The translations under genes and the position numbers were made by a program. A stretch of 64,000 nucleotides of DNA from assembly GCA_036556025.1 (NCBI GenBank), contig DATBKD010000005.1, positions 13,845-77,844 of the forward strand, read 5' to 3'. Every line of letters begins with the position of its first letter. The first letter of the stretch is position 1. The DNA comes from Gemmatimonadales bacterium (GTDB taxonomy: Bacteria; Gemmatimonadota; Gemmatimonadetes; Gemmatimonadales; GWC2-71-9). Of this stretch, positions 1,785 to 59,854 are shown in pieces. Below the pieces are notes generated by a model, which was not told the origin of the DNA, made no database searches, and saw nothing but the letters and a program-made list of their open reading frames with translations.

Positions 1785-3248
1785 ATGGCGACCACGGCAC
1801 GCATTTCCGCTCCCCGGCGCACCTCCTCGGCCACCGAAGTCCAGAAGCTCCTCGACCTGATCAAGCAGAAAAACATCCAGGTCGTGGATGTGAAGTTCTG
1901 CGACCTTCCGGGGACGTGGCAGCATTTCTCCATCCCGGCCAACACCCTGGATGAGAGCCTGATCCGCGAGGGACTGGGTTTCGACGGCTCCTCCATCCGC
2001 GGCTTCCAGGCGATCAACGAGAGCGACATGCTGCTCATGCCGGATGTCTCGACGGCCTTCGTCGATCCGGTGCTCTCGGTGCCGACGCTGTCGCTCACCT
2101 GCGACATCTACGACCCGATCACGCTGGAGCCCTACTCCCGCGATCCCCGATTCGTTGCGTTCAAGGCCGAGGAGTATCTCCGCACCACCGGCATCGCCAC
2201 CGCCTCCTACTGGGGGCCCGAGGCGGAGTTCTTCATCTTCAACTCCGTCCGGTTCGACCAGAACGCGTTCGAGGGGTACTACCACATCGATTCGGAGGAG
2301 GGGGTCTGGAACTCCGGCCGGAACAGCGGTCCCAACCTGGGCCACCGGCCCCGGCACAAGGAAGGCTACTTCCCGGTTCCGCCGGTGGATCGGTTGCAGG
2401 ACGTGCGGTCCAAGATCATGCTCGCGATGATCGAGGCGGGCGTTCCGGTAGAAGTGCAGCACCACGAGGTCGGCACTGCGGGGCAGGCGGAGATCGACAT
2501 CAAGTTCGGCACCCTGGTCCAGACCGCCGACCGGCTAATGCTGTACAAGTACATCGTGAAGAACGTGTGTCACAACCTGGGGTACACTGCCACCTTCATG
2601 CCCAAGCCGCTTTTTGGAGACAACGGCTCGGGCATGCACTGCCATCAGTCGCTGTGGAAGGGAGACACCCCGCTGTTCTTCGACAAGGACGGCTACGCCC
2701 TCATCTCGGAGACCGCGCGGCATTACATCGGCGGACTGATCGCGCACGCCCCGGCGCTCCTGGCGATCTGTGCTCCGACCACCAACAGTTACCGCCGGCT
2801 GGTTCCCGGCTTCGAGGCGCCGGTCAACCTGATGTACTCGGCGCGCAACCGGTCGGCTATCTGCCGCATCCCGATGTATTCGACCAGTCCCAAGTCCAAG
2901 CGGGTCGAGTTCCGCGCGCCCGACCCCAGCGCGAACCCCTATCTGGCTTTTTCCGCCATGCTGATGGCCGGGCTCGACGGCATCAGGCGGAAGCTCGAGC
3001 CGCCCAAGCCGATCGACGAGGACCTGTACGAAATCCACGACGAGCGCAAGCAACTGATCAAGCAGGTGCCGGGCAGCCTCTCGGAGTCGATCGAAGCCCT
3101 GGAGAAGGACCACGACTTCCTGCTGGCCGGCGACGTGTTCACCGCCGACGTGATCGATACCTGGATCACCATGAAGCGGACCAAGGATATCGCGCCGGTG
3201 ACTCTGCGGCCGCATCCGTACGAGTTTTTCCTGTATTATGACAGCTAA
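1785..3248 (+). CDS. glnA: glutamine synthetase, type I
   Basis: 487-aa ORF. The N-terminal [19 protein letters not shown], the [12 protein letters not shown] motif, [12 protein letters not shown] and the C-terminal region are typical of GlnA. Confidence 0.97.
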
Positions 3249-3403
3249 CAGCTAACAGCTATCAGCTATCAGCTATCAGCTATCAGCTGCGCCACAGCGA
3301 CGCGACCCTCCGGCGCCTTCATCGGAGGGTCGAGTGTCTCGGACTAGCGTTAGCTGTTAGCTGTTAGCCGTCAGCTGTTAGCCGTCAGCTGTTAGCTGTT
3401 AAC
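3242..3403. repeat. E1: tandem-heptamer palindromic hairpin element filling the glnA-ilvD gap
   Basis: The left array (3242-3290) has 7 units: CAGCTAA x2, CAGCTAT x4 and CAGCTGC. The centre holds the stem-loop CGACCCTCCG (3303-3312), a 10-nt loop, then CGGAGGGTCG (3323-3332). The right array (3350-3403) reads TTAGCTG TTAGCTG TTAGCCG TCAGCTG TTAGCCG TCAGCTG TTAGCTG TTAAC, the reverse-complement units. The glnA stop TAA (3246-3248) lies in unit 1. The ilvD ATG is 9 nt after the right array. Confidence 0.9.
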
Positions 3404-3412
3404 TTTGTCCCC

Positions 3413-5089
3413 ATGCCCCCCAACCTGCGCAGCAAAGCCATCACTCAGGGCGTCGAGCGCGCGCCCAATCGGGCCATGCTTCGCGCCGTCGGCTTCGACG
3501 ACGCCGATTTCGGCAAGCCCATCATCGGAATCGCCAACGGATATAGCACCATCACGCCGTGTAATGCCGGCCTCGACCTCCTCGCGCAGCGGGCCGAGCG
3601 GGCCGCTCGCGCCGCGGGCGCCATGCCGCAGCTCTTCGGGACCATTACCGTCAGCGACGGGATCTCGATGGGCACCGAAGGCATGAAGTACTCCCTGGTC
3701 TCCCGCGAAGTCATCGCCGATTCGATCGAAACCGCCTGTGGGGCCCAGAGCATGGACGGGGTGGTGGCCATCGGAGGCTGTGACAAGAACATGCCCGGCG
3801 CGATGATCGCCATCGCCCGGATGAACATTCCGGGCATTTTCGTGTACGGCGGCACCATCAAGCCGGGCCACTATGCCGGGCGGGACCTGACCGTGGTGAG
3901 CGCCTTCGAGGCCGTCGGCCAGTACAGTGCCGGCAAGATCGACGATCGGGAGCTGGGAGAGGTCGAGCGCCGAGCCTGTCCGGGCAAAGGCTCCTGCGGC
4001 GGCATGTTCACCGCCAACACCATGTCCTCAGTGTTCGAGGCGATGGGCATGAGCCTGCCCTACTCCTCGACCATGGCCGCCGAAGACGCCGAGAAGGCCG
4101 CCAGCGCGGCCCGATCCGCCGAGGTGCTGGTGCAGGCCGTCGAGCGCGGCCTGCTGCCGCGCCAGATTCTGAGCCGCGCCGCATTCGAGAATGGCATCAG
4201 CGTCACGATGGCGCTGGGCGGATCCACCAACGCGGTGCTGCACCTGCTCGCCATCGCGCATGCGGCGGAGGTGCCGCTTGCCCTGGACGATTTCGAGATG
4301 ATTCGGGCCCGCGTCCCGGTGCTCTGCGATCTCAAGCCGTCCGGGCGGTTCGTCACTCTCGACCTGCATCACGCCGGCGGGATTCCGCAGGTGATGAAGA
4401 TGCTCCTGGCCCACGGGCTGCTGCACGGCGACGCCCTCACCATCACCGGAGAGACGGTTGCCCAGAGCCTCCGCGATGTGCCGGCGGAGCCTCGATCCGA
4501 TCAGGAGGTGATCCGCCCCTGGGGGCGCCCGCTCTACGCCCAGGGGCATCTTACGATTCTGAAAGGCAATTTGGCTCCCGAGGGAGCGGTGGCGAAGATC
4601 ACCGGCGTCAAGTCGCCGAGGATGACGGGACCCGCCCGGATCTTCGAATCGGAGGAGGCCTGCCTCGAGGCCATCCTGGGCGGCCGAATCCGGGCGGGCG
4701 ATGTGATCGTGATTCGCTACGAGGGACCTCGGGGAGGGCCCGGGATGCGGGAGATGCTAGCCCCGACGTCGGCAATCATCGGAGCCGGCCTGGGCGACTC
4801 CGTGGGTCTCATTACCGACGGCCGCTTCTCCGGTGGAACCTACGGGCTGGTTGTCGGTCATGTTGCTCCAGAGGCCGCCGTGGGCGGACCGCTGGCGCTG
4901 TTGGAGGAAGGCGATCTGGTGACCATCGATGCCGAGCGGCGGGTGCTCGAGGCGGACATCCGCAAGGACGAGCTCCAGCGGCGCCGGACGCAGTGGGCTC
5001 AACCGCAACCTCGCTATACCAGAGGCGTGCTGCACAAATATGCCAGCCACGTATCCAGCGCGAGCCTCGGCGCGGTGACCGATCTCTAG
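3413..5089 (+). CDS. ilvD: dihydroxy-acid dehydratase
   Basis: 558-aa ORF. It carries [32 protein letters not shown] and the [11 protein letters not shown] motifs of the IlvD/Edd family. Confidence 0.97.
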
Positions 5090-5105
5090 TACCCTGACGC
5101 CGGCA

Positions 5106-5735
5106 GTGCCGAGGTCGTTGCACCATGCGACCGTCTTCGGCGTCGTCGCGCTCTCCTGCCTGGTGCTCTTCGGTTGGCTCACCGCCGCGGTGGTGGCGCA
5201 GCGTACCCTGGCGTGGGATGAGCGGGTCATGCTTGCGGTCGCAGGACTGCGATCACCGGTGGTCACCTGGTGGATGAAGATCGTGAGTGCGGTGGGATCG
5301 GGAGCGGTCGAAGTCCCGGTCGGCCTGCTCCTCCTGTGGCGGCTCGTCTCGCGGGGCGCCCGGCCGGCGGCCTACGGCTACGCTTCAGCCTTGGTGAGCA
5401 GCTGGGCCCTCTACGGGCTCACCAAACTGCTGGTCCACCGTCCGCGACCACGAGTCATCTCTCATCTCGCCCATGATGCCGGCTGGTACTCCTATCCGTC
5501 GGGGCACACCATCCTCGCACCGCTGGTCTTCGTCCTCGGCGCCATCATCTGGACTCGAAGCTGGGCTCGACCGGAGGCCCGCCTGGGCCTGGTGCTGGCA
5601 GGCGTGAGCCTGTCCCTGGCAATCGCCGGTTCCCGAGTCTACCTCGGCGCCCACTATCCTACCGATGTCATTGGAGGTCTGCTGCTGGGTACTGCACTGA
5701 GCGCCGCATGGATGCCGCGGCTGACCGTGAACTAA
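5106..5735 (+). CDS. PAP2-family phosphatase (membrane)
   Basis: 209-aa ORF with a GTG start. PAP2 motifs are [14 protein letters not shown] and [13 protein letters not shown], and there are several hydrophobic segments. Confidence 0.85.
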
Positions 5736-6826
5736 CGCTCGATCACCGGTTCAACCGCGCGGCCCCAAAGAACCAGACGCGCAATCTCCTCTCCGATCTC
5801 TCGGGTTCCCAGCGACGGCGTCCCACTGATGGCAATGTCGGCAGTCCGGGCACCGGCAGCGAGGACGGCGGCGATAGCCTGCTCCACCGTGGCCGCCGCC
5901 TCGGGCAGGCCCAAGCCATATCGGAGCAGCATGGCGGCGCTGGCGATGGCCCCGATAGGGTTGGCCACCCCGCGGCCGGCAATATCCGGGGCGGAGCCGT
6001 GGACCGGTTCGAACAGACCGGGACCATCCCCGATGGAAGCGGAAGGCAACAGTCCCAGGGACCCGACCAGCACCGCCGCCTCATCCGACAGAATATCCCC
6101 GAAGAGATTCTCGGTGAGCACCACATCGAAGGCCGCCGGACTGGAGACCAGCCGCATCGCCGCGTAGTCGACATAGAGGTGCTCCAGCCGCACATCGGGA
6201 TAACCCTCAGCAACCCGGGTCACCGTTTCCCGCCAGAGCTGGGAGACCTCCAGTACGTTGGCCTTGTCCACTGAGGTCACCAGCCGGCGCCGGTTGCTCG
6301 CCGCCTCAAAGGCGACCCGCGCCACCCGCTCGATTTCCTCGACGCTGTAACGCAGAGTATTCACCGCGGCATTGGGGCCGAGGCTACGCGGCTCCCCGTA
6401 GTAGAGCCCACCGGTGAGCTCCCGCACGATGAGGAGATCGACGCGCTCAAGCCGCTCCGGTCTGAGGGGGGAGGCATGGCGCAGCGCGGGATACACGGCG
6501 ATGGGCCGGAGATTGGCGTAGGCACAGAGCAGCTTTCTCAGCGCGAGCAGACCGGCCTCCGGCCGCCGATTTCCTTCAGCTCGGCTCAGCGACGGATCTC
6601 CGACCGCTCCCAGAAGCACCGCATCCACCTGGGTGACCGCATTTCGGGTGACGGCGGGCAACGAGTCGCCCGTGAGAGCTACGCCGGCGGCCCCGATCGG
6701 GTATTCCCGCGTCTCGACGACGAACCCGAAGAGGTCGGCGGCCGCCTGAAGAACCCGAAGGGCCTCGGCGGTCACCTCCGGTCCGATCCCATCGCCGGGA
6801 AGCACCGCCAGAGAGAACCGTTTCAC
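5732..6826 (-). CDS. leuB: 3-isopropylmalate dehydrogenase
   Basis: 364-aa ORF. It has [10 protein letters not shown] near the N-terminus and [11 protein letters not shown], and its start overlaps the leuD stop by 4 nt. Confidence 0.95.
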
Positions 6827-7437
6827 CAGACCGGAACCGGTTGGTCGGCGGCACGACGCTGCTCGAACGCGGCGATTGCCGGTTCCAGTTGCAGCGTGCG
6901 CCCGATTTCGTCCAGACCCTGGAGCAACATCTCGCGGCGATAGGGATCGAGGTGGAATGGCGCCGCGAATCCCAGCGGGTCCTGGACTCGCTGCGCTCGC
7001 AGATCAACCGTGAGCTCATACCCCCCCTGCGCACTCAGCGCTCTCCGGCTCAACTCAGCGATGACGGACTCCGGCAACACCACCGGCAGCAAACCATTCT
7101 GACAGCAGTTGCCGTGGAAGATGTCAGCGAAAGAGGGAGCGAGGATGGCGCGAAACCCGTAATCGGCCAGTGCCCACGGCGCATGCTCTCGGGACGAGCC
7201 GCAACCGAAATTGGGACCGGTGATCAGAATGGTGGCTCCGCGGGCAGCGGGCTGATTCAGCTCGAACTCGGGATTGAGTGCGCCGTCGGCGAGATAGCGC
7301 CAATCATAGAAGAGGCAGGGGCCGAAGCCGGTGCGTTCGATCCGCTTCAAGAACTGCTTGGGAATGATCTGATCGGTATCGACGTTGGCTCGCGGCAGCA
7401 GTGCAACGCGACCGGAGTGGATTTCGAAGGGTTGCAT
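6823..7437 (-). CDS. leuD: 3-isopropylmalate dehydratase small subunit
   Basis: 204-aa ORF with an aconitase swivel-domain-like sequence ([15 protein letters not shown]). It lies between leuC and leuB. Confidence 0.93.
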
Positions 7438-7595
7438 ACGCCTCTCGATAACTATTCAACGCACCTTGGCATCGGAGGTCATCGATAACTTTAACGAAGA
7501 TCTACTAAGCTATTGTGATAACGGCACTTATATGCGGCGAATGAGATACGACTTGAAGCTGTATATTCACTGACGACGATCGCATATCTGCCGCA
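7438..7595 (-). other. AT-rich intercistronic spacer between leuC and leuD
   Basis: By hand count about 69 of 155 bases are G/C (~45%), against clearly GC-rich flanks. It contains short repeats: CGATAACT twice, and ATATGCG / CGCATAT plus TGCGGC / GCCGCA inverted pairs. Confidence 0.6.
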
Positions 7596-9002
7596 TTACC
7601 CTCGCATATGCTCTCGCACGTCGACCAGACAGCCTTCGATCGCTGCGGCCGCGGCCATCGTCGGACTCATCAGGTGCGTGCGCCCTCCCCTGCCCTGTCG
7701 TCCTTCAAAATTTCTATTCGACGTGGACGCGCATCGTTCACCGGGGGACAGAATATCCTCATTCATGCCGAGACACATGGAGCATCCGGGATTGCGCCAC
7801 TCGAAGCCTGCGTCAATGAAGATGCGATCCAACCCTTCGCGCTCGGCGGCGGCCTTCACCGACTGAGAGCCAGGCACCACCATCGCACGCACATGCCGGT
7901 TGACGGTTCGTCCTCGCGCGACCGCGGCGGCCTCGCGCAAGTCCTCCAGTCGGCCATTGGTGCACGATCCCAAAAACACTCGGTCCACTGGAAGCCCCCT
8001 CAGCGGTGTTCCCGGCCGGAGGTCCATGTAGTCCAGCGCGCGCCGATACGACTCCCGCTCCGCAGCAGACGGCGCCTCGGATGGGTCGGGAACTTGCTCG
8101 GTGATGTCGGCCGTCATACCGGGACTGGTTCCCCACGTCACCTGAGGACCCAAGGTTCCAGCGTCGATGAAAACGGACCGGTCGTAGTGGGCTCCCGGAT
8201 CGGGGTGGAGCTCCTGCCAAGCGCGAAGTACGGCCTCGCGGCGAGCGCCCTTGGGTGCCCGCGGCGTGCCGGCGAGATAGTCGAAGGTGACGGCATCCGG
8301 GGCGATCATCCCGGCCCGGGCGCCCGCCTCGATGGACATGTTGCAGATGGTCATCCGGCCCTCCATGGACAGGGCCGCGATGGCTTCTCCGGTGTACTCG
8401 ATAACGTGGCCGGTCGCACCCGCGGTCCCGATCCGGCGAATCAACCCGAGGATCAGATCCTTGGCCGACACGCCGGGCGCCAGCCGACCGCTGAAGTGAA
8501 TCTCCATGGTCCGCGGGCGGGACTGGACGATGCATTGAGTGGCGAGAACGTGTTCCACCTCGCTGGTGCCGATCCCGAAGGCCAACGCTCCGAATGCGCC
8601 ATGGGTCGAGGTGTGGGAGTCCCCGCAGACAATGACCATTCCCGGCTGCGTCAGCCCGAGCTCCGGCCCGATCACGTGGACAATCCCCTGCTCGGGGGCG
8701 CTGAGGTCGAACAGCTCTACCCCGAAGTCCCGGGCATTCCGCTCCAGCGCCTGCAGCTGGAGCGCGGCCGTCCGGTCGGCGATGGGGAGCCGGCGATCGC
8801 CGGTGGGAACGTTGTGATCCACCGTGGCCACGGTCAGATCCGGACGCCGCACGCGACGGCCGGCCAGCCTCAGACCCTCGAAGGCTTGGGGGGAGGTTAC
8901 CTCGTGCACCAAGTGCAGGTCCACGTAGAGCAGGGCCGGACCGTGGGGCCCCTGATGAACGACGTGTGAGTCCCAGACCTTCTCGAACAGCGTGCGCGCC
9001 AT
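7596..9002 (-). CDS. leuC: 3-isopropylmalate dehydratase large subunit
   Basis: 468-aa ORF of the aconitase family, with [23 protein letters not shown] and NRNFEGRQG. Confidence 0.96.
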
Positions 9003-9005
9003 GAT

Positions 9006-10100
9006 TCAACCGGAGACGCTGGCAGGCGAAGGCTGAGCGACAGGCTTGCGGCCCGGCTTGTCCGGCGCCAACGGGGGACTGACGGCGCCGGAGCGCTTTC
9101 CTTCCTCGGACCAGGGCATCATCGCCCGAAGCTCGGCGCCCACGCGCTCGATCTCATGGTGCTTGTCGGCCTTGCGCAGCCGCTCGAAGTTGGCTCGGCC
9201 GGCGCGGTTCTCGGTCAGCCACTCCCGGGCAAAGGATCCGTTCTGGATCTCGTCCAGAATGCGGCGCATCTCCGCGCGGGTCTCCTCCGTGATCACTCGT
9301 GGGCCGCGGGTGTAGTCCCCGTACTCGGCAGTGTCGCTGATCGAGTAGCGCATAAACTGCATCCCACCGCGGTACATGAGATCCACGATCAGCTTGAGTT
9401 CGTGCAGGCACTCGAAATAGGCCATCTCTGGGCGGTAGCCCGCGGCCGTGAGGGTTTCGAAGCCGGCTTTGACCAACGCCGTCACTCCACCACAGAGCAC
9501 CGCCTGTTCGCCGAACAGATCGGTCTCGGTCTCCTCCCTGAAGGAGGTCTCGATCACACCAGCCCGAGTACAGCCGATCCCCGCGGCGTAGGCCAGAGCG
9601 TTGGCCAGCGCCTGTCCGCTCGCATCCTGATGGATGGCCACCAGGGCCGGGACTCCCCTGCCGGCTTCAAACTCACTGCGGACCAGATGGCCCGGCGACT
9701 TCGGGGCGACCATGCTGACGTCCACCCCGGCGGGTGGCACGATCTCGCCGAAATGAATGTTGAACCCATGGGCGAACATCAGGGTCTTGCCGGGACCAAG
9801 CGCTTGCTGGATCCCGCCTTCGTACACCCCGCGAGCGTCCTGGTCCGGCACCAGCATCATGATCACGTCGGCTGCCGCGGCCGCCTCGGCCACCGGCCGC
9901 ACATCGAGCCCGGCGGCCCGGGCCCGGTCCCATGACGCACTGCCAGCGCGCAATCCGACGACCACGCGGGCACCACTGTCCCGCAGATTCAGCGCGTGGG
10001 CGTGCCCCTGGCTGCCGTAGCCGATGATGGCGAAGGCGCGGCCCGAGAGCCGCTGACGGTCCGCGGCGGAGTCGTAGAAGATGTGAACGGGCTGGGTCAT
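9006..10100 (-). CDS. ilvC: ketol-acid reductoisomerase (class I) with low-complexity C-terminal tail
   Basis: 364-aa ORF. It has [19 protein letters not shown] (Rossmann motif) and the knotted-domain sequence. About 30 extra Pro/Ser/Ala-rich residues sit at the C-terminus. Confidence 0.96.
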
Positions 10101-10200
10101 GGTCTCATCCAGTCTCAGAGTTCGTTGGGTCGTTGGATTGATTGCTGCCGCAAGTCGATAGTCACTCGTCGTTCGTCAGTAGAAGACCGACACCTTTCCT

Positions 10201-10683
10201 TCACCTACCAGCCTCTAATGCCACCGCTCCACTCCGAGCCACCTCGAGGACCTCGAAACGCTCGAGCGCGCGGATGCAGGAGAGGACGAAAGCCTCGGAG
10301 CCGGTGAGCTCTACGATCATCGCTTCAGGACTGTCGTCAACCACCGAAGCGTGATAAAGCTGGACGACGTCCAGCAGCTCACCGTAGCGCTCCGCTGGAG
10401 CGCGAACTTTGACCAGGGCCAGTTCCCGGGCCACACCGTCCTGCGCGGCAAAGGAGGTTGCTTCACGCACCCCGATCATCTTCTGCAAATGCTTCACCGC
10501 GCGATCCGCCGCGGAGTCGTCTGACTGAATCATGATGGTAAGCCTCGAAAGTCCAGGGGTCGCCGTGGGTCCCACGGCAATACTGCGCACGGGCAAGTTC
10601 CGCCGACGAATCAACCCGACGGCCCGGGTGAGCGTGATGAGGCGGTCCTCCAGCAGGACCGTAACGGCGTGGGGCGCACTCAT
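10201..10683 (-). CDS. ilvN: acetolactate synthase small (regulatory) subunit
   Basis: 160-aa ACT-domain protein (LLEDRLITLTRAVGLIRRRNLPVRSIAV). Its start overlaps the ilvB stop by 4 nt. Confidence 0.9.
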   Translation of the reverse strand: MSAPHAVTVLLEDRLITLTRAVGLIRRRNLPVRSIAVGPTATPGLSRLTIMIQSDDSAADRAVKHLQKMIGVREATSFAAQDGVARELALVKVRAPAERYGELLDVVQLYHASVVDDSPEAMIVELTGSEAFVLSCIRALERFEVLEVARSGAVALEAGR

Positions 10684-12383
10684 ACCGGCGCGAGCCGGGG
10701 CGAGATCGCTTCCGACTCGATCGGCTCGGACAGGGATGCACCCGGGGGAATCATCGGATAGACGTTGGCTTCCTGCTCGATCTGGAACTCGACCAGGGCA
10801 GGTCCCGGCCGGTCAATCGCCGCCTGGACTGCTTGCTCCACCTCGCCGGCAGTTTCCACTCGCCAGCCGGGAATCCCATACGCCTCCGCCAGGCGAACGT
10901 AATCGGGACTCCAGATCGGCGTCGCCGAGTAACGGCGTCCGTGGAAGAATTGCTGCCATTGGCGGACCATGCCCAGATATCCGTTGTTGAAGATCGCCAT
11001 CTTTACCGGGATGCCTTCCTGCACCATGGTGGCGATCTCCTGCATATTCATCTGAAACCCGCCGTCCCCGGAGATGGCCCATACCGGTTCGCCCGGCCGG
11101 GCCAGGACCACGCCCATGGCCGCGGGCACGGCAAAACCCATCGTGCCGAGCCCACCCGAGGTGATGTGGGTGTTGGGGCGCTGATAGCGGAAAAGCTTGG
11201 CAACCCACATCTGGTGCTGGCCCACGTCGGATACGATGGTGCAGCGCCCGGAGATCAGATCGATGGCCTCCAGGATCCCCTCGGGAGACAGTCCCCCCCG
11301 GAAGCTCTCGGCCCTGGGGCGCACGAAGCCAGCGATCTCCTCTCGCCACTCCTCGCAGGTGCGACTCGGCACCGCCTCGATCAGCCGACCCAGCAGCTCC
11401 CGGGCGTCGCCCACCAGAGCGACGGTGACCGGCACATTCTTGCCGATCTCGGAGGGGTCAAGCTCGAGGTGAATCAGTTTTGCGCCCCGGGCGAAACCGG
11501 CGAGGTTGCCGGTCACCCGGTCGTCGAATCGGAGTCCCACTCCAAGAATGAGATCGGCCTGCTGGATCGCGCGGTTGACGTGGACCTCGCCATGCATGCC
11601 GGGCATGCCGAGATGCAGGGGGTGGGACTCGGGAAAGCCGCTGATGCCGAGCAAGGTGGTGATGACCGGGATCCCGGTCTTTTCGGCGAACGCCCGGAGC
11701 TCGCCGTAGGCATTGCTCAGCACGATGCCGTGGCCGGCCATGATCAGAGGCCGCCTGGCCTCGGCGATGAGCTGGGCGGCGGCTTGTAAGGACGGTAAGG
11801 ACGGTAAGGCGTACCCTTCGGCAACCTTCCCGTCCTTCCCGTCCATTCCGCCTTTACCGCCCTTCCATTCCACCTTCTGGTTCTGCACGTCCTTGGGAAT
11901 ATCGATCAGGACTGGGCCGGGACGTCCCTCCTGGGCCACAGCGAACGCGTCCCGCACCACGTCGGCCAGCTCCCCGGCATCCTCGACCAGCCAGCTGTGT
12001 TTGGTGATCGGCTGGGTGATGCCGATGATGTCGGTTTCCTGGAACGCATCCCGACCCATCATCGCTCGCGCCACCTGTCCGGTAATGGCGACTACAGGGG
12101 TGTTGTCCATGTGCGCCGTGGCCAGACCGGTCACGAGATTGGTAGCGCCCGGTCCCGATGTCGCGACGCAGACTCCCGCTCGCCCGCTGGCACGAGCGTA
12201 GCCATCGGCGGCATGGGCCGCCGCCTGTTCGTGGCGGACCAGCACGTGGCGCAATCCCGGATGCTCGGGCAGTGCATGGTAAAACGGCATGATCGCGCCG
12301 CCGGGATACCCGAAGAGGATTTCGACTCCCTCGTCGAGGAGAGCCTGGCAGAGGATTTGGGCGCCGGTGAGATGCTCCGTCAT
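10680..12383 (-). CDS. ilvB: acetolactate synthase large subunit (ThDP enzyme)
   Basis: 567-aa ORF with SGPGATNLVTGLATAHMD, GGLGTMGFAVPAAMG and GDGGFQMNMQE. It contains the repeat element E2 in frame. Confidence 0.96.
   Translation of the reverse strand: MTEHLTGAQILCQALLDEGVEILFGYPGGAIMPFYHALPEHPGLRHVLVRHEQAAAHAADGYARASGRAGVCVATSGPGATNLVTGLATAHMDNTPVVAITGQVARAMMGRDAFQETDIIGITQPITKHSWLVEDAGELADVVRDAFAVAQEGRPGPVLIDIPKDVQNQKVEWKGGKGGMDGKDGKVAEGYALPSLPSLQAAAQLIAEARRPLIMAGHGIVLSNAYGELRAFAEKTGIPVITTLLGISGFPESHPLHLGMPGMHGEVHVNRAIQQADLILGVGLRFDDRVTGNLAGFARGAKLIHLELDPSEIGKNVPVTVALVGDARELLGRLIEAVPSRTCEEWREEIAGFVRPRAESFRGGLSPEGILEAIDLISGRCTIVSDVGQHQMWVAKLFRYQRPNTHITSGGLGTMGFAVPAAMGVVLARPGEPVWAISGDGGFQMNMQEIATMVQEGIPVKMAIFNNGYLGMVRQWQQFFHGRRYSATPIWSPDYVRLAEAYGIPGWRVETAGEVEQAVQAAIDRPGPALVEFQIEQEANVYPMIPPGASLSEPIESEAISPRLAPV
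11785..11867. repeat. E2: 9-nt-unit palindromic element located in frame inside ilvB
   Basis: The plus strand reads TGTAAGGAC GGTAAGGAC GGTAAGGCG (11785-11811), a centre tacccttcggca, then AACCTTCCC GTCCTTCCC GTCCATTCC GCCTTTACC GCCCTTCCA (11823-11867). On the ilvB sense strand it is translated as WKGGKGGMDGKDGK-VAEGY-ALPSLPSLQ. Confidence 0.85.
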
Positions 12384-12402
12384 CAGACAACCCTTCTTGG
12401 CA

Positions 12403-12435
12403 GAACTGCGTGAACAGGGTTTACGCGTTTCGCCA
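12403..12435. repeat. E8: minimal hairpin sharing both flanks with E4 (leuA-ilvB gap)
   Basis: GAACTGCGTGAAC (12403-12415) and CGTTTCGCCA (12426-12435) are identical to E4 positions 40447-40459 and 40493-40502. The internal hairpin is GCGTGAAC-agg-GTTTACGC (12408-12426). Confidence 0.75.
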
Positions 12436-12438
12436 ACA

Positions 12439-13995
12439 TCACACCCCCCACAGGTACACCGAGTTCAACGAGCTTGCCTCCAGCCGTTCGGCGTGGCGCG
12501 CCTTATTCAGCGCGAGCAGCAGGGCGCGGGCACTGGCCTCGACGATGTCGGTGGACGCCCCGTGGCCGGAGAGGGACTTGCCGTCGATCTTGGCCTGGAG
12601 AAAGACCTGTCCCACGCTGTCCCGCCCCGGGGTGAGGGAGCGAAGCGTCAGACTCAGGACCTCGATTTGATGGCCGATGATCTCGCTGATGGCGGCAAAG
12701 GCGGCCGCGATCGGTCCGTCACCGCTCCCCCGAGCCGAGCGCTCGCCGTTCCAGGGACCGGTCATCCGCACGTCCGCCGCCGGGGTGACGCTGCCACAGA
12801 CGACTCGCAGATGGGTGAGCTGGTACTCTTCAGGCGCGTCATGGAAAGCGCCGTGCACCAGGGCCAGCAGATCCTCGTCCAGGATCTCCCGTTTGCGATC
12901 GGCCAGGGCAATGAATTGGCGGTAGACCTCGGCGATCTGACCCTCATCCAGGTCATACCCCAGATCGCGGAACCGCCGTTCGAGCGCATGCCGACCAGAG
13001 TGTTTGCCCAGGACCAGCGTCGATCGCGGAATTCCCACCATCTCCGGGCGAATGATCTCGTAAGTCAGCCCGTTCTGGAGCATGCCGTGCTGGTGAATTC
13101 CGGCCTCGTGGGCAAAGGCATTGCGCCCGACGATGGCCTTGTTGGGCTGGGGAACGACTCCCGTGAGATAGGAGAGGAGCTGGCTGGTCCGATAGATCTC
13201 GCGGGATTCGACGTTACAGCGGAACGCGACCGCCGAGGACCGGACCTGGCCGGCCATGACGATCTCCTCCAGCGCCGCATTGCCGGCCCGCTCGCCGATG
13301 CCGTTTACGGTGCATTCGACCTGCCGGACGCCGGCCTCGATCGCTGCCAGGCTGTTGGCCACGGCCAGCCCCAGGTCGTCGTGACAGTGGGCGCTGAACA
13401 CGACCCGATCACTGCCCGGCACCCGGCTGCGAACGTCACGAAACATGGCGGCGTACTCATGCGGCAGGGCGTACCCGACGGTGTCCGGCAGATTGACGGT
13501 TCGGGCACCCTCCGCGATGGCCAGCTCCACCACCCGGCACAGGAAATCCGGATCGGAGCGGCTTGCATCTTCGGCCGAAAACTCGACGTCGTCGGTGAAG
13601 TGCCGGGCCCGGCGGATGGCGCTGCGAGCGAGATCGAGCACCTCGTCCCGGCTGATCCGCAGCTTTTCCCGGATGTGAAGGTCGGAGGTGGAGATGAAGA
13701 CGTGAAGTCGGCCACGGACCGCCTGACTCAGTGCCTCGCCGGCAAGATCGATGTCCCGCTCGTGGCAGCGGGCGAGGGCGGCGATCACCGGCCGGCGAAC
13801 CTCGGCCGCGATGTCCCGTACGCTGCGGTAGTCGCCCTCCGAGGCAGCCGGAAAACCGGCCTCGATCACATCCACGCCGAGCGCGTCGAGCTGTCGCGCG
13901 AGGCGCAGCTTCTCCTCCGCCGACAGACTGTTTCCGGGAGCCTGCTCGCCATCGCGCAAGGTGGTATCGAAGATCAGGACGTCCGTGGTGCCCAT
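12439..13995 (-). CDS. leuA: 2-isopropylmalate synthase
   Basis: 518-aa ORF with TTLRDGEQAPG and HCHDDLGLAVANSLAA, plus the C-terminal LeuA dimerisation/regulatory domain. Confidence 0.96.
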   Translation of the reverse strand: MGTTDVLIFDTTLRDGEQAPGNSLSAEEKLRLARQLDALGVDVIEAGFPAASEGDYRSVRDIAAEVRRPVIAALARCHERDIDLAGEALSQAVRGRLHVFISTSDLHIREKLRISRDEVLDLARSAIRRARHFTDDVEFSAEDASRSDPDFLCRVVELAIAEGARTVNLPDTVGYALPHEYAAMFRDVRSRVPGSDRVVFSAHCHDDLGLAVANSLAAIEAGVRQVECTVNGIGERAGNAALEEIVMAGQVRSSAVAFRCNVESREIYRTSQLLSYLTGVVPQPNKAIVGRNAFAHEAGIHQHGMLQNGLTYEIIRPEMVGIPRSTLVLGKHSGRHALERRFRDLGYDLDEGQIAEVYRQFIALADRKREILDEDLLALVHGAFHDAPEEYQLTHLRVVCGSVTPAADVRMTGPWNGERSARGSGDGPIAAAFAAISEIIGHQIEVLSLTLRSLTPGRDSVGQVFLQAKIDGKSLSGHGASTDIVEASARALLLALNKARHAERLEASSLNSVYLWGV

Positions 13996-14020
13996 ACGCG
14001 CTTTCTGTTCGGTGAAGGTG

Positions 14021-14054
14021 AAAAAAAAAGCCGCGGACTGTGAGGTCCGCGGCG
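14021..14054 (-). terminator. intrinsic terminator (attenuator) between the leader peptide and leuA
   Basis: The minus-strand RNA reads GCCGCGGAC-cucaca-GUCCGCGGC followed by nine U (A-run 14021-14029 on the plus strand). It ends 25 nt upstream of the leuA ATG. Confidence 0.8.
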
Positions 14055-14084
14055 CTGAGGATTCTGAGAGATGCTGCTGCTATC

Positions 14085-14186
14085 TCACGTGGCTCCGGTC
14101 GGCACGCCGTGGACCCCTGGCTTACCAATAAGGATGGTAAGCAGGAGGCTAAGGACGACGACGACGAGCGCGAGATTGAGCAGCAT
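14085..14186 (-). CDS. branched-chain amino acid leader peptide (33 aa)
   Basis: This is the tail of track ORF 14085..15584(-): MLLNLALVVVVLSLLLTILIGKPGVHGVPTGAT. Of the first 20 residues, 16 are Leu, Val or Ile. It sits between a promoter candidate and the terminator. An in-frame TTG 11 codons upstream is an alternative start. Confidence 0.7.
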   Translation of the reverse strand: MLLNLALVVVVLSLLLTILIGKPGVHGVPTGAT

Positions 14187-14253
14187 GGGTCCGATCGCGA
14201 TGGTCCGTTGAAACGACAACGGTGGTTGCCTCGAAAGAGCGGCAACGTTCCTG

Positions 14254-14282
14254 AGGCTAGCGTGTGCCCTGAGCACTGTCAA
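14254..14282 (-). promoter_or_regulatory. sigma70-like promoter candidate for the leader-leuA-ilv-leu operon
   Basis: On the minus strand: TTGACA (14282-14277), a 17-nt spacer, then TAGCCT (14259-14254). Confidence 0.45.
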
Positions 14283-14296
14283 GTGGGAATGACCGC

Positions 14297-14325
14297 TTGA
14301 CGGATGCGCCGTGATGCATAATAAT
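14297..14325 (+). promoter_or_regulatory. sigma70-like promoter candidate for gltB (divergent from the leu promoter)
   Basis: TTGACG (14297-14302) followed 16-17 nt later by TAATAA/AATAAT (14319-14325). It is back to back with the minus-strand promoter. Confidence 0.4.
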
Positions 14326-14430
14326 ACAGCCATGAGCTGCGCGATGCTTGCCCGAGTTCTTCCGATTAACGCTAATCTCGCCCGCCACGAGGGGGCGACC
14401 GGGTAAGCGAGCGCGTTTGCGCTATGTCCC

Positions 14431-14459
14431 GGCCCGCTCCCTAGGAGTGGGCCTTTTTT
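14431..14459 (+). terminator. intrinsic-terminator-like hairpin inside the gltB leader
   Basis: GGCCCGCTCC (14431-14440) pairs with GGAGTGGGCC (14444-14453) with one G-U pair, followed by TTTTTT (14454-14459). It ends 55 nt upstream of the gltB ATG. Two more hairpins precede it (TCGCCC/GGGCGA ~14389-14409; AGCGC/GCGCT ~14411-14424). Confidence 0.55.
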
Positions 14460-14513
14460 GTTGCCCCGACGCGGCCTCTCCGGCCGCTGGGGTCTCACAC
14501 CGCAGGAGGCACC

Positions 14514-19148: not shown

Positions 19149-19178
19149 GCGACCGACATAGGCTGAAGGAGGTCCAGC

Positions 19179-19220
19179 TTGACGGGAGATGTACCGGCAA
19201 ATAACTTGCTAGTCAGCAAG
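19179..19220 (+). promoter_or_regulatory. promoter candidate plus palindromic operator candidate upstream of tetR
   Basis: TTGACG (19179-19184), a 17-nt spacer, then TAACTT (19202-19207). The palindrome CTTGCT-agtc-AGCAAG (19205-19220) overlaps the -10 element. Confidence 0.4.
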
Positions 19221-19254
19221 CAAGCTCCACCACGTGAGGCCTGAGCCGCGCCTT

Positions 19255-21787: not shown

Positions 21788-21851
21788 GAGAACCGTTCGT
21801 CCTTCCGCCAGCCCATTCTATCTTTACTCTCACCCAGATCCAGGACCGCGC

Positions 21852-34118: not shown

Positions 34119-34132
34119 CCTCCGACCCAGTT

Positions 34133-39610: not shown

Positions 39611-39723
39611 GGAGTGAGAAGTGAGAGGTAAGAAGGCCACCGCCCTCCAGGTACGCTTGGCGCAGCGGGGGCCCTTCTCACCTCTTACTGCTCACATCTC
39701 ACTTCTCACTTCTTACTTCCTTC
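39600..39723. repeat. E3: tandem-heptamer palindromic hairpin element upstream of queC
   Basis: The left array is GTGAGAA GTAAGGA GTGAGAA GTGAGAG GTAAGAA (39600-39634). The centre contains CCCTCC and the mini-hairpin CCAGG-tacg-CTTGG (39647-39660). The right array is TTCTCAC CTCTTAC TGCTCAC ATCTCAC TTCTCAC TTCTTAC TTCCTTC (39675-39723). The upstream stop TAA (39608-39610) lies in unit 2. The queC ATG is 21 nt after the right array. Confidence 0.9.
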
Positions 39724-40446: not shown

Positions 40447-40529
40447 GAACTGCGTGAACCGCAAACTGTGAAACGTGAAGGCTGGTCATTCTCGTTTCGC
40501 CACTCACGTTTCACCTTTCACGCTTCACG
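40443..40529. repeat. E4: heptamer palindromic element filling the queC-queE gap
   Basis: The left array has loose units CTGAGAA CTGCGTGAA CCGCAAA CTGTGAA ACGTGAA (40443-40479). The right array is CTCACG TTTCACC TTTCACG CTTCACG (40503-40529). The queC stop TGA (40444-40446) lies in unit 1. The queE ATG is 4 nt after the right array. Confidence 0.8.
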
Positions 40530-47655: not shown

Positions 47656-47689
47656 ACGGGCCGCTCAGGTGAGCGGCCCGTTTCCTTTG
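47656..47689 (+). terminator. intrinsic terminator candidate after the cold-shock gene
   Basis: ACGGGCCGCTC, loop aggt, then GAGCGGCCCGT (47656-47681), followed by the T-rich TTCCTTTG. Confidence 0.6.
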
Positions 47690-47690
47690 C

Positions 47691-47806
47691 TGGCTATCAG
47701 CTAACAGCTATCAGCCAATCTCAATACTTTCGACCCTCCGATGTGGCTACCGGAGGATCAAAGCAGGTGGAGTAGCTGTTAGCCGATAGCTGATAGCTCC
47801 TAGCTT
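47691..47806. repeat. E5: tandem-heptamer palindromic element (same unit and core as E1) between the convergent cold-shock gene and infA
   Basis: The left array is TGGCTAT CAGCTAA CAGCTAT CAGCCAA (47691-47718). The core is CGACCCTCCG (47731-47740), a 10-nt loop, then CGGAGGATCA (47751-47760). The right array is GTAGCTG TTAGCCG ATAGCTG ATAGCTC CTAGCTT (47772-47806). The infA stop codon (47805-47807) abuts or overlaps the last unit. Confidence 0.88.
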
Positions 47807-49849: not shown

Positions 49850-49889
49850 GAGAACTCCCAGGTCACGAGCGATCCGGTCGAGGCTCCGA

Positions 49890-49918: not shown

Positions 49919-49939
49919 TCATCGACGGCAAGGCCGAGC

Positions 49940-51817: not shown

Positions 51818-53052
51818 GAGACCCCAGCCTCCTGCTTGGCAGCGGTTGCAGCGGGCACCCGGCCGTCGGCGCTGATCTGGAACGCCATGATGCCTACCAA
51901 AGCGACGTATCCCCCTGCGACATAGAAGGGCCAGCCGTGACCAATGCGCTGGAAGATGGTAGTGGCGAGAAGCGGCGCGCCTACGCGCGCTAGACCGGCA
52001 AAGGTCTGCGCGACACCCATCGTGGTGCCCAGTTCGCCCGGATCAGAGTAGCGAGACATGAGGGATGTCGTGGCCGGGAACAGCAGCGCCGTCCCGATCG
52101 GCACCAGCGGTATGACCGCGGCCAAGGTCCAGAGATCCCTCGGCATAGGATACAGCACCAGCCCAAGGGCGAGAAGGGCGGTCCCCGTGCGCATCGTCCA
52201 GACCTCGCCGAGGCGATCCACGATCGGGCCCAGGAGCAGGCTGCGCATGACCAGCGACAGCGCTCCGATGTACGCGAAGATAGGTCCGATGTTCGCCTCG
52301 GTCAGCCGGAACTCCGCACCCAGGTACAAGGCCAGCACCGACGTCATGGACGAGAACGCCAGCATCCCCACGCCGTAGATCCAGATCAGGCGCGACACCG
52401 GTTGCGCCGGATGGCGCACCACCAGCCACGCCGGGTGCCAGAGGGGCCTGTGCGGCGGCCTGCCGACGGCGGCTGCGCGGCTCCGCGACTCAGGTAGCCA
52501 TTTCCAGGCGAACCCCACATTCAACAGACACAGGGCCGCGGCAACCAGCCCCGGGACCTCATGGCCGAAGTGGAAAGCGAACGAGCCCAGGGCCGGGCCC
52601 AGAATCACACCGGCCGAGGTGGCGGCCGAGAGCCAGCCCAGGGCTCGGGCCCGATCCTTGGGCTCGATGGAATCGGCCACGTACGCCTGGGCCACTCCGG
52701 TCGTGCCGCCGCCGGCCCCCTGCACGATTCGCGATGCCAGCAGCAGCCAGACGCTGTCGGCAAAACTGAACACGACGTAGGCAATGGCCGACGCACTCAA
52801 GCCGATCAGCAGGGCCGGCCGACGCCCATAGCGATCGGAGACCCGCCCCCACACCGGGGCGGCGAGCAGCTGCGCGATGGAGAACGAGGCGATCAGCTGG
52901 CCGACCGTTTCGGGCGAGGCGTTCAGCTTGAGGGCGTAGAACGGCAGCAGCGGGAGCACGATCATGAAGCCGATCATGTCCACGAAGTTGACCGCGATCA
53001 GCACCGCCAGCCGCCGGAAGTTGGCACCCGGGCCAGGCCCGGCCAGCTTCAT
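51814..53052 (-). CDS. MFS transporter
   Basis: The start is trimmed to ATG 53052, which overlaps the permease TGA (ATGA). The 412-aa product has about 12 hydrophobic segments and the MFS motif A GRVSDRYGRRPALL. Confidence 0.88.
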   Translation of the reverse strand: MKLAGPGPGANFRRLAVLIAVNFVDMIGFMIVLPLLPFYALKLNASPETVGQLIASFSIAQLLAAPVWGRVSDRYGRRPALLIGLSASAIAYVVFSFADSVWLLLASRIVQGAGGGTTGVAQAYVADSIEPKDRARALGWLSAATSAGVILGPALGSFAFHFGHEVPGLVAAALCLLNVGFAWKWLPESRSRAAAVGRPPHRPLWHPAWLVVRHPAQPVSRLIWIYGVGMLAFSSMTSVLALYLGAEFRLTEANIGPIFAYIGALSLVMRSLLLGPIVDRLGEVWTMRTGTALLALGLVLYPMPRDLWTLAAVIPLVPIGTALLFPATTSLMSRYSDPGELGTTMGVAQTFAGLARVGAPLLATTIFQRIGHGWPFYVAGGYVALVGIMAFQISADGRVPAATAAKQEAGVS

Positions 53053-55780: not shown

Positions 55781-56943
55781 CGCTTTCCCGTGTTGCGCAC
55801 GTGCCGGTCCCAGTAGCTCATCCAGGCGGTCCCATTGCGAGCGAGCAGGTCCCAGTCCATGTGAGTCACCACCATCTGGCTCTCCACCTGTGCCACCCAC
55901 GCGGGAATTCGGTCGCTTGGCAGGTCGCGCCTGGCCGGAAGCCGAAATACTCGGTCGGCAGCGAGCAACTGACCTTCCTCGCTGCCCACGTAGTCGATGA
56001 ACGCCCTGGCGGCCTCGGCGTGGTGACAACCCTTGACCAGGCCGATCGCGTCGTCGATCACCACGGTTCCGCTGGTCGGAAAGACATAGTCGAAGGGCAG
56101 TCCTTTGGACCGGCTGATCAACACATCCGGAAGATCCCACAAGGTCAGGAGTCCCTCGCCCCGGGCGAGCCGGGCATCGAGGATCGCCGGGTTCAAGGTG
56201 TACGCCTTGGTCTGGCCGTCCAGCCGCCTGAGCCAGGCGATGCCTTGAGTGGTGTCGCCCGTCTCCCGAAGACTGCGCACCAGGATGAGGCCCCAGATCG
56301 CACGCATGGTACCGCTCGCCATGGGATCGCGGATCAGGATCTTGCCGCTCCAGCGCGGAGCGAGCACCTCGTCCCAATCCTTGGGCGCGCGCTCCCGGGA
56401 CAGCAGCCGATCATTGAACGCAATCACCACCGGCGTGCGGTAAACCGGATAGTACAGATCATTCGGGCCCACGCCACCGGTGCCCACATGATCCGCCCAG
56501 GCGGGACGATACGGGGCCAGCAGCGAATCCTTGACGCCGCGGTCAAAAATCGTGGTGGGCCCGCCGAACCACACGTCCGCCTGGGGGTTGACCCGCTCGA
56601 ACCGTAACCGATCGAGGATCTCCTGGGATCCCATGTCGAGCCAGCGCACGTCAATGTCCGGCCGCTTGGCCTCGAAGGCATGCTCCAGCAGCGTGAGCTG
56701 ATCTCGGCCGTGGGGCGAGTAGAGGACGAGGGGGGTCCGGTGGTCGGAGGTGCAGGCGGTAAGGACGGGAAGGGCGGTAAGGGCGGTAAGGACGGGAAGG
56801 ACGGTAATGACGGGAAGGACGGGAAGGACGGGAAGGACGGGAAGGGCGGGAAGGCACACGACGAGGGACCTACTCGCGTGTTTCCGAAACCAACGCAGTA
56901 GGTCCCTCCCTTCGCTGGGGATCACGCTCGAGGTTCTTCGCAC
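55777..56943 (-). CDS. ABC transporter periplasmic substrate-binding lipoprotein (iron(III)-type family 1 binding protein)
   Basis: The mature domain starts around PLVLYSPHGRDQ. The lipobox is LTAC. The only in-frame start codons between the upstream gene's stop and the mature domain are GTG 56943 (preceded by AGAGGA), GTG 56925 and GTG 56859, and all lie upstream of the 9-nt array. The array is therefore translated as LPALPVLPVLPVLPVITVLPVLTALTALPVLTAC. Confidence 0.8.
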   Translation of the reverse strand: MRRTSSVIPSEGRDLLRWFRKHASRSLVVCLPALPVLPVLPVLPVITVLPVLTALTALPVLTACTSDHRTPLVLYSPHGRDQLTLLEHAFEAKRPDIDVRWLDMGSQEILDRLRFERVNPQADVWFGGPTTIFDRGVKDSLLAPYRPAWADHVGTGGVGPNDLYYPVYRTPVVIAFNDRLLSRERAPKDWDEVLAPRWSGKILIRDPMASGTMRAIWGLILVRSLRETGDTTQGIAWLRRLDGQTKAYTLNPAILDARLARGEGLLTLWDLPDVLISRSKGLPFDYVFPTSGTVVIDDAIGLVKGCHHAEAARAFIDYVGSEEGQLLAADRVFRLPARRDLPSDRIPAWVAQVESQMVVTHMDWDLLARNGTAWMSYWDRHVRNTGKR

Positions 56944-56999
56944 TCTCTGTCCTCTGCCTCCCTTCCCCGTCCTTACCGCCCTTCCCGCCCTTCTCGCCC
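56758..56999. repeat. E6: 9-nt-unit palindromic element between the PIG-L gene and the ABC binding-protein gene
   Basis: The left array has 11 units of GG(G/T)AAGG(A/G)C (56758-56856). The centre is the 12-bp stem GAGGGACCTACT (56863-56874), a 22-nt loop, then AGTAGGTCCCTC (56897-56908). The right array has 4-5 units including GTCCTTACC GCCCTTCCC GCCCTTCTC (56958-56999). The upstream gene's TAA (complement of 56973-56975) lies inside a unit. Confidence 0.9.
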
Positions 57000-59648: not shown

Positions 59649-59651
59649 GAG

Positions 59652-59854
59652 GTCGAGAGGTTAGAAGTTAGCAGTGAGCAGTGAGCAGTGAATAGTGAGC
59701 AGTGAGTAGGAGCCAGTGAGCAGTGGATCGACGGAGCAACCTCCATAATGCCGTGCGCGGGAACGGCCTCGGGGAGCTACTTCTTACTTTTCACGCGTTA
59801 CCGCACGGCGCACTGCTTTCGGCTTTCTCACTCCTTACTGCTGACTGCTATCTC
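59652..59854. repeat. E7: tandem-heptamer palindromic element between a small membrane-protein gene and the PIG-L gene
   Basis: The left array (59652-59728) has about 11 units, including GGTTAGA AGTTAGC AGTGAGC AGTGAGC AGTGAAT AGTGAGC AGTGAGT AGGAGCC AGTGAGC. The centre has GGAG-caac-CTCC (59733-59744). The right array (59776-59854) is good at the outer end (TTCTCAC TCCTTAC TGCTGAC TGCTATC) and degenerate toward the centre. The upstream stop TAG (complement of 59848-59850) lies in the outer unit. The downstream TTG start (59648) is 3 nt beyond the other array. Confidence 0.85.

Follow-up and report, generated by a model that had tools for sequence, protein, structure and literature searches.

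The DNA examined here is a 64-kb stretch with 65% G+C (the window) from the metagenome-assembled genome (MAG) of a soil bacterium of the Gemmatimonadales, and it carries a set of hairpins whose two arms are arrays of short tandem units, the right arm being built from the reverse complement of the left. A first-pass annotation had placed eight such loci (E1 to E8) in the window. Tandem arrays were called with Tandem Repeats Finder and arm pairing with an inverted-repeat finder, and the two programs agreed with that annotation on where the arrays lie; the paired arms are 28-48 nt long and 79-96% complementary. Folding energies are given as z-scores against 200 dinucleotide shuffles. E1 (3242-3403), between glnA and ilvD, has a minimum free energy of -94.4 kcal/mol (z -9.4); its left arm (3242-3288) holds 6.7 copies of CAGCTAA/T and its right arm (3345-3403) 8.3 copies of TTAGCTG-type units, reported by Tandem Repeats Finder as CAGCTAT and TAGCTGT (3345-3401). 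The E1-type heptamer recurs in E5 (47691-47806; z -4.2), between the convergent cold-shock and infA genes, where Tandem Repeats Finder places the arms at 47693-47715 and 47773-47798. E3 (39597-39723; z -7.7) lies between an epimerase/DUF1731 gene and queC, with 5.1 copies of GTGAGAA (also GTAAGGA) at 39600-39635 facing 6.6 copies of CTTCTCA (TTCTCAC-type) at 39674-39719. Two elements have arms of 9-mers: E6 (56757-56999; z -6.9), flanked by genes for a PIG-L-family protein and a solute-binding protein, with 10.9 copies of CGGGAAGGA in its left arm (56757-56854) and a right arm at 56960-56999, and E2 (11785-11867; z -4.3), which lies on the minus strand in frame within ilvB (10680-12383), with arms at 11786-11809 and 11825-11866.

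These five elements are strong hairpins, and folding confirmed that they lie far outside the shuffles (z -4 to -9). The remaining three are weak and do not reach significance when taken singly: E4 (40443-40529; GTGAA/TTCAC-type units; z -2.1), between queC and the next gene; E7 (59652-59854; z -2.2), between two minus-strand genes; and E8 (12403-12435; z -2.7), a minimal hairpin that is not expanded and lies between the stop codon of leuA and the start codon of ilvB. The expectation that the loci would outperform shuffled controls held for E1, E2, E3, E5 and E6 (z -4.2 to -9.4) but not for E4, E7 and E8 alone. The right arm of E7 had been described as decayed, and this is the case: 8.6 copies of AGTGAGC (59666-59725) face a degraded complement, and the ungapped inverted-repeat finder pairs 59666-59691 with 59828-59853. 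E4 and E8 have a 13-mer and a 10-mer in common (GAACTGCGTGAAC and CGTTTCGCCA). Folding of every intergenic gap in the window revealed no extra strong elements, and a scan of the whole window returned no Rfam match at gathering score, a check that the annotation had proposed; nor does the window contain tRNA or tmRNA genes.

Three of the window's elements touch coding sequence, a feature that the first-pass annotation had overlooked. The stop codon (TAA) of glnA sits within the first CAGCTAA unit of E1, and E2 is entirely internal to ilvB. Both arms of E6 overlap coding ends: the left arm (56757-56865, minus strand) encodes (LPV)n...LTAC in the lipoprotein-signal-like N-terminus of the solute-binding protein, and the upstream 891-aa PIG-L-family protein takes its C-terminal GREGREGR* from the right arm (56973-56999).

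Hairpins of this kind are abundant in related genomes. An unbiased sample, chosen without reference to any repeat, was obtained by scanning metagenomes with the ilvB protein and comprises 80 contigs (794 kb; 71-88% amino-acid identity). A second scan, of species-representative genomes, used a central stem-loop of E1 and E5 (core A; pattern CGACCCTCCG-N4-16-CGGAGGRTC) and returned at least 119 loci. The relatives are MAGs or metagenome contigs throughout, assigned by similarity only, and gene calls outside the window come from a simple GC3-based caller and are crude. The ungapped finder made 71 inverted-repeat hits in the 794 kb of ilvB-linked contigs, compared to about one in shuffles, and the density over roughly 1 Mb of related Gemmatimonadales DNA is about 9 hairpins per 100 kb. 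The high genomic copy number and the additional copies anticipated from the window alone were thus borne out, as was the occurrence of one unit at several loci of a genome. Arms were periodic in 55 of the 94 hairpins from the window and both Gemmatimonadota samples, with a period of 7 in 41, 8 in 10, 10 in 3 and 9 in one. Inversion is the usual arrangement of short-unit arrays: among 139 Tandem Repeats Finder arrays (period 5-12, at least 3 copies), 62 belong to inverted pairs detected by that program and 41 more lie no further than 260 nt from a partner that complements them at 12 or more of 14 bases, for a total of 103 (~74%).

The eight loci do form one architectural family, as had been suggested, but not by virtue of their units. 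A continuum of single substitutions had been offered as the unifying trait, and the relatives use dozens of unrelated units (e.g., GGCTCTA, GGATTGC, GGGGCTC, TGCGGAA, GAACGCG and GGCGGTAA). Its members are united by a period that is mostly 7, by their location at gene junctions and by a chirality in which the G-rich arm comes first. In periodic-arm hairpins the GC skew of the left arm exceeds +0.2 in 50 cases and falls below -0.2 in one (binomial p = 5e-14), whereas the non-periodic hairpins with marked skew are divided into 6 G-rich-first and 5 C-rich-first. Half-detected arrays agree, the G-rich ones being partnered on the right and the C-rich ones on the left. The rule 5'-(G-rich units)n-centre-(C-rich units)n-3' is almost invariant, and because a palindrome is identical when read from either strand, it holds on both strands and for any direction of transcription or replication. 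Stop codons in all frames were considered as a cause of the chirality and rejected, since the 5' arm is free of stops in 14 of 35 intergenic elements.

Elements begin 0-15 nt from the upstream stop codon (most distances fall between -14 and +8 nt) and end 5-30 nt ahead of the next start, and they are mostly operon-internal, as at leuA|ilvB, ilvC|leuC and leuD|leuB. Where hairpins labelled as coding by the caller were inspected, most proved to be junctions with read-through tails (e.g., ilvC|leuC, leuD|leuB and leuB|ilvD), and the linker of ilvB is the sole secure internal coding site. In two of the contigs (L158 12990-13112 and 15100-15200; L172 11948-12040), ilvC, leuD and leuB open reading frames (ORFs) have no stop ahead of the hairpin and run through both arms, which gives them low-complexity C-terminal tails of 30-40 aa.

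Comparison of orthologous sites shows that the hairpins persist with compensatory turnover of their arms, that unit number is polymorphic and that arms are shared between loci. The left arm of E1 has exactly one 7-nt unit fewer in a metagenome contig of the same population, and its right arm is unchanged; unit-number polymorphism of this sort, here between two same-population assemblies, was among the checks that the first-pass annotation had recommended. E3 is identical in four same-population metagenome contigs, and so is E4. The contig L126, whose ilvB is 88% identical, is syntenic with the window and has core A and homologous spacers at its glnA|ilvD site, with arms of GGCTCTA/TAGAGCC where the window has CAGCTAW/TTAGCTG. 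Relative to L126, the E1 array of the window overwrote the final codon and stop of glnA: the gene ends ...YYDS* (3239-3250; AGC TAA, within the first unit) in the window and ...YYDT* (19160-19176; ACT TGA, ahead of the array) in L126. At the leuA|ilvB junction, L125, L142, L146 and L148 possess full hairpins with heptamer arms of 26-44 nt. Their outer stem (GAACAGCGTGAAC...GTTCACGCAGTTC) is the same as, or close to, the one that constitutes the whole of E8, whose outer stem GAACNGCGTGAAC is common to full tandem-arm hairpins of relatives. Finally, L165 has a near-identical arm (GGGGCTCGGGGTTCGGGRTYCGGGGCTCG) in its ilvB linker, at ilvC|leuC and at a third site, with centres that differ. In L158, which is 87% identical in ilvB DNA, the linker instead holds an unrelated plain palindrome; the rest of the gene aligns and the linker alone does not.

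The centres of the elements are less uniform than their arms. Core A (CGACCCTCCG-loop-CGGAGGGTCG) occupies 3303-3332 in E1 and 47731-47760 in E5; within the window it is exact only in these two of the eight elements, its 9-mer is absent from the rest of the window, and the 71 hairpins from the unbiased sample include it once. Among the matches listed in the genome scan, the core-A stem is an ordinary GC hairpin in most phyla; about 25 of those listed are Gemmatimonadota MAGs, and most of these are flanked by inverted tandem arrays. The surrounding units vary by locus (TTAGCTG, GCGGTAA, GTGAGAC, GATCGGY, CGGGACGG, GGCGGTAR and GTCGCAG among the matches listed), and in the MAG STL-GEM5 three core-A elements have the TTAGCTG unit in common. 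A second type, core B, lies at 56863-56908 in E6 (GAGGGACCTACT...AGTAGGTCCCTC then CTTCGCTGGGGAT, the whole centre reading GAGGGACCTACT...AGTAGGTCCCTC.CTTCGCT.GGGAT) and is also the centre of a hairpin in a different Gemmatimonadales MAG (L074 6787-7018), whose heptamer arms make it otherwise unrelated to E6. An element in L030 has a 7-nt loop and no core. We considered a single conserved centre for the whole family and rejected it, given that core A is found in two of the eight elements of the window and in one of 71 unbiased ones and that some elements are coreless. Centres are therefore optional, with at least two conserved types and otherwise a unique sequence or a mere 7-nt loop; the proposal that each element has a unique centre, usually with a small stem-loop of its own, stands for some elements and fails for the others. 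Hairpins or centres of the GTCATTCCGAGCGAAGCGAGGGATC or GTCGTCCCGAGCGCAGCGAGGGA type recur, either within elements or standing alone (L144 8045-8130, L145 4912-4994, the centre of L126 311-457 and L074 6830-6950), and look like a widespread repeat related to core B that resembles repetitive extragenic palindromic (REP) sequences.

The sharing of arms and centres raises the question of mobility. The hairpins could be non-autonomous elements of the type of MITEs (miniature inverted-repeat transposable elements) or REPINs, in which case the arms would be terminal inverted repeats and whole elements, or their cores, would transpose into existing hairpins. E1 and E5, with a unit and core A in common and the core 9-mer nowhere else in the window, would fit this explanation, as would the three core-A elements of STL-GEM5, the presence of cores A and B at unrelated loci of different genomes, the 13-mer of E4 and E8, and the replacement of the L165 ilvB linker by the arm type of neighbouring loci. 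However, none of the copies inspected, including the ends of E1, E5 and the L165 copies, has a target-site duplication. Copies with the same arms differ in their centres and those with the same centre differ in their arms; since copies have common arms or a common centre and never both, none behaves like a single unit that transposes. E1 and E5 have unrelated spacers, and at orthologous sites the core is kept while the arms change in place. No transposase or RAYT turned up, although no search aimed at them was made, and core A is without the GTAG/CGTC tag that REP superfamilies carry (PMC3733652). We consider mobility of this kind improbable.

The coding site is the linker of ilvB, which encodes the large subunit of acetolactate synthase. 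The window's IlvB protein matches an NCBI Gemmatimonadales acetohydroxyacid synthase large subunit with 100% identity, and E2 encodes ...WKGGKGGMDGKDGKVAEGYALPSLPSL... in the interdomain linker, from the DIPKDVQ motif to the next RPLI motif. Across 120 homologs the linker between DIPKDVQNQK and AARLIAEAQRPLI is hypervariable, with a recurring pattern in which a half rich in Gly, Lys, Arg and Asp precedes a half rich in Pro, Ser, Leu and Ala; this is the translation expected when a C-rich arm follows a G-rich one. When 81 orthologs were folded as DNA, most had a long in-frame hairpin in the linker. In 43 of the 81, against a chance expectation of about 5%, no other 100-nt window of the gene is as stable as the linker, and the linker's z-score is below -2 in 51 of the 81 (median -2.6). 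The hairpin sequences of these orthologs are nevertheless unrelated and cannot be aligned. Some have tandem-unit arms (GGCGGTAA in L125 and L126, GTCGGTCA in L127 and L128, GGCGGACC in L144, GGCGGTCG in L145, and also L142) and others are plain long palindromes (L181, L184 and L188). E2 and E6 both use the 9-mer GG(T/G)AAGG(A/G)C, whereas the ilvB linkers of relatives use other units.

The REP/BIME and REPIN elements of Enterobacteria and Pseudomonas are high-copy imperfect palindromes at operon-internal junctions, with a presumed role in stabilising upstream mRNA and in binding gyrase or IHF. The Gemmatimonadales hairpins resemble them in being high-copy junction palindromes within operons, and cores A and B behave as dispersed REP-type hairpins. 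The explanation that we tentatively favour, while rating it somewhat short of probable, is that the elements are hairpins evolving in place, which grow by slippage, keep their arms complementary and probably act on operon mRNA in the manner of REP/BIME sequences. The seed would be a small hairpin at a gene junction, either an ordinary one or a dispersed REP-like core such as core A; in ilvB it would have arisen in a sequence-tolerant interdomain linker. The stem would then be lengthened and remodelled by slipped-strand gain or loss of 7-9-nt units in each arm, slippage being presumably the means of growth, and it would survive insertions and deletions of whole units because arms made of one repeated unit can pair in any register. 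Slippage would fit the single-unit difference in one arm of E1, and expansion from a small seed would fit the contrast between E8 and the full hairpins built around its outer stem. Mrazek's proposal, cited in passages of PMC4679880 and PMC4692102, ties heptamers to the footprint of the polymerase. In this scheme the arms would stay complementary while the unit changes, and arm sequence would occasionally be copied between loci of one genome. The elements would be transcribed within operons and fold in the mRNA as stems of 25-50 bp, with an intercistronic role like that of REP/BIME sequences, either protecting 3' ends or partitioning polycistronic mRNA. As for the chirality, if a C-rich, G-poor arm were the first to emerge, it would offer Rho a naked loading site, whichever of the strands is transcribed; we propose that the G-rich arm comes first because the C-rich arm then pairs as soon as it is made and is masked from Rho.

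An RNA-level role could also be sought in termination, if the elements were Rho-independent terminators or attenuators that work in both directions and have acquired longer stems. At many loci the GC-rich stem of core A has an A-rich flank on its left and a T-rich one on its right, and among the matches listed this stem is an ordinary terminator-like hairpin in other phyla. Elements also lie close after stop codons, and their pyrimidine-rich 3' arm would make a weak RNA:DNA hybrid. However, no U-tract follows the arms, while real U-tract terminators exist elsewhere in the window at 14431-14453 (plus strand), 14053-14030 (minus strand) and 47659-47690 (plus strand, identified by eye), the last after the cold-shock gene and directly 5' of E5. 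A terminator scan of positions 1-20000 recovered the canonical sites at 14431-14453 and 14053-14030, but among the elements it flagged only a 5-bp sub-hairpin in E1 and left E2 and E8 unflagged, and in the sequences of E3 to E7 no T-run follows the arms. In addition, most copies are operon-internal and directly 5' of the next start codon, and one is within ilvB. A role as terminators is therefore very improbable.

Several observations weigh against the favoured explanation, in which hairpins evolve in place and act on mRNA. Its RNA-level function is one that we purely infer, and we likewise infer masking from Rho as the reason for the chirality. The presence of canonical U-tract terminators elsewhere in the window implies that the hairpins are not needed for termination. 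Intergenic copies appear dispensable in the short term: the leuA|ilvB hairpin is found in only about 10 of 74 relatives' contigs, and at the site upstream of a queF-like gene, where L126 carries 147 nt of hairpin with 11-mer arms, the window retains a 23-nt remnant and is otherwise empty. This remnant, or possibly precursor, is a mini-hairpin at 21786-21810 (GGAGAACCGTTCGTCCTTCCGCC) that keeps the right-arm end ...CCTTCCGCC. Presence and absence among relatives, for which the first-pass annotation had advised looking, is thus found at both sites; an order-wide leuA|ilvB hairpin, like that of the linker, had been expected and was rejected, the hairpin being confined to closer relatives. The orientation of the junctions (co-directional in 16 cases, convergent in 3 and divergent in 2) does not depart from the baseline of 70/16/14%, and one of the two divergent cases is a gene-calling error within ilvB. 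Finally, a hairpin kept within the ilvB reading frame is hard to square with a 3'-end protector or processing site, and it fits maintenance at the DNA level, without function, at least equally well.

Indeed, a DNA-level process devoid of function is nearly as likely as the explanation that we favour. Here the elements would be self-maintaining DNA palindromes that grow by slippage and are kept up by intrastrand template switching and ectopic conversion, with selection purging only the harmful copies. The sites at which they are found are tolerant ones (junctions, read-through C-terminal tails, the h-region of a signal peptide and the ilvB interdomain linker), and the linker hairpin lasts across the order even though an RNA role in a translated region is unlikely. 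Presence and absence among relatives, the lack of an orientation bias relative to the junction baseline and arms copied from one locus to another all accord with such a process, and correction of quasipalindromes by template switching is established in E. coli. However, the strict G-rich-first chirality would need an extra assumption, such as fold-back or stalling confined to G-rich nascent strands. That elements persist for long at intergenic sites free of constraint is also harder to explain, because long palindromes are normally deleted and a strong regenerating bias would be needed. Moreover, the variant units of E1 are not mirrored between its left and right arms, and templating between arms is therefore occasional at best.

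A more far-reaching possibility, which we regard as unlikely, is that an undescribed mutational process writes and renews the palindromes, and that these belong to a self-renewing class of structural repeats, present also in Xanthomonas, rather than to functional hairpins of the REP type. The process might be hairpin-templated synthesis (by fold-back or template switching), triggered when the polymerase reaches a G-rich tandem array once the complementary arm has already been copied. If true, this would account jointly for the chirality, for complementarity that is maintained despite changes of unit and for the copying of arms between loci, and it would mean that a palindrome could last as long as the order itself in the linker of an essential gene.

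The first-pass annotation knew of no described element that combines tandem arrays with an inverted arrangement, but one exists in Xanthomonas. As far as the passages of Rehm et al. (2015; PMC4692102) on which we draw here go, each genome has 183-186 (GGGAATC)n arrays, of which 70-75 close inverted pairs (X. campestris and X. axonopodis) are "always" composed of one array per strand in convergent orientation. The arrays are ~90% intergenic, lie at a mean distance of 28 nt behind the upstream ORF and are transcribed, and no function was found for them; they have the same gene neighbours in two species, with varying length and sequence. In those passages the inverted pairing is noted in passing and left unanalysed, and the arrays are read through the formation of G-quadruplexes. 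The likeness to the Gemmatimonadales hairpins is considerable in these respects: tandem heptamers lie close together on opposite strands, convergent orientation amounts to G-rich first, and the arrays are intergenic, directly after the upstream ORF, with a conserved location and variable length and sequence. However, Xanthomonas as described there uses essentially one unit, GGGAATC (GGGANTN), with a GGG tract for the quadruplex, whereas the Gemmatimonadales use dozens, with periods of 7-11. Most of these have no GGG tract and many are unable to form a quadruplex (CAGCTAA, GTGAGAA, GGCTCTA, TGCGGAA and GAACGCG). The Gemmatimonadales also have dispersed conserved core hairpins, of which the passages in question (PMC4692102) make no mention, and one conserved coding site in the ilvB linker, unlike the arrays that they describe. 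The architecture is therefore not unprecedented, the precedent in those passages being sketchy; new here are the many units, the core hairpins, an explicit chirality rule, compensatory turnover at orthologous sites, copying between loci and an order-wide coding hairpin in ilvB.

Other known repeats are less similar. REPs have a fixed consensus of 20-40 nt and partner RAYT transposases, and their stems are not built from tandem arrays. Most Gemmatimonadales elements, in contrast, share no sequence, and core A starts with CGAC rather than GTAG or CGTC. Core A, the candidate for a conserved palindrome of the REP type, is found in many Gemmatimonadota MAGs, has 2 copies in 64 kb and 1 in 71 hairpins, and is missing from most elements. 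The STRR arrays of cyanobacteria and the arrays of Beggiatoaceae are likewise abundant intergenic tandem heptamers near gene ends that vary in unit number; for the TAACTGA arrays of Beggiatoaceae, MacGregor (2015; PMC4679880) counted 169 direct sets versus a single inverted one. Such arrays are thus direct and almost never inverted, whereas about three quarters of those in the Gemmatimonadales are in inverted pairs. The RPEs of Rickettsia are palindromic repeats of 100-150 nt with a family consensus that are tolerated in frame within protein genes and inserted in many different ones. E2 resembles them as an in-frame palindrome within an ORF, but it is specific to one orthologous linker and lacks a conserved or family consensus sequence. 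The intrastrand triplexes of PMC4666352 are a different class of motif, and the "palindromic microsatellites" of fungal mitochondria (PMC7218506) offer only a loose analogy. We found no description of such hairpins in the Gemmatimonadota literature.

Among the long simple repeats of bacteria, heptamers are over-represented the most, and we know of no accepted cause or role for this excess. Since about three quarters of the heptamer-type arrays here are palindromes of one handedness, the question of the repeats and that of the hairpins may be one and the same. The ilvB linker, with about 80 independent versions of the "same" hairpin in a conserved gene, amounts to a natural experiment that could tell templated self-repair apart from selection on the structure of the RNA or DNA, and the chirality rule is directly testable by inverting an element and by assaying Rho-dependent polarity. 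The elements also have a practical consequence, as the predicted proteins of the Gemmatimonadota, an abundant soil phylum, gain from them spurious tails at the C-terminus, repeats at the N-terminus and linkers of low complexity. Several contigs end near hairpins: L001 starts ~45 nt before E1 and L030 ~55 nt before its hairpin, while L029 ends ~70 nt after its hairpin and L126 ~140 nt after its glnA|ilvD element. This suggests, but does not prove, that the hairpins break short-read assemblies.

Two further features of the window were noted. A plain hairpin without tandem units (CCCGTACGGGCCCGG...CCGGGCCGTACGGG; z -2.1) lies at 34129-34183 in a 72-nt gap between co-directional genes. Between 50001 and 56000, the AT skew of the plus strand is 0.18-0.29 over ~6 kb, compared to mostly about -0.1 to +0.1 elsewhere, and within this segment the crude gene caller left a 1.2-kb gap at 51818-53048.

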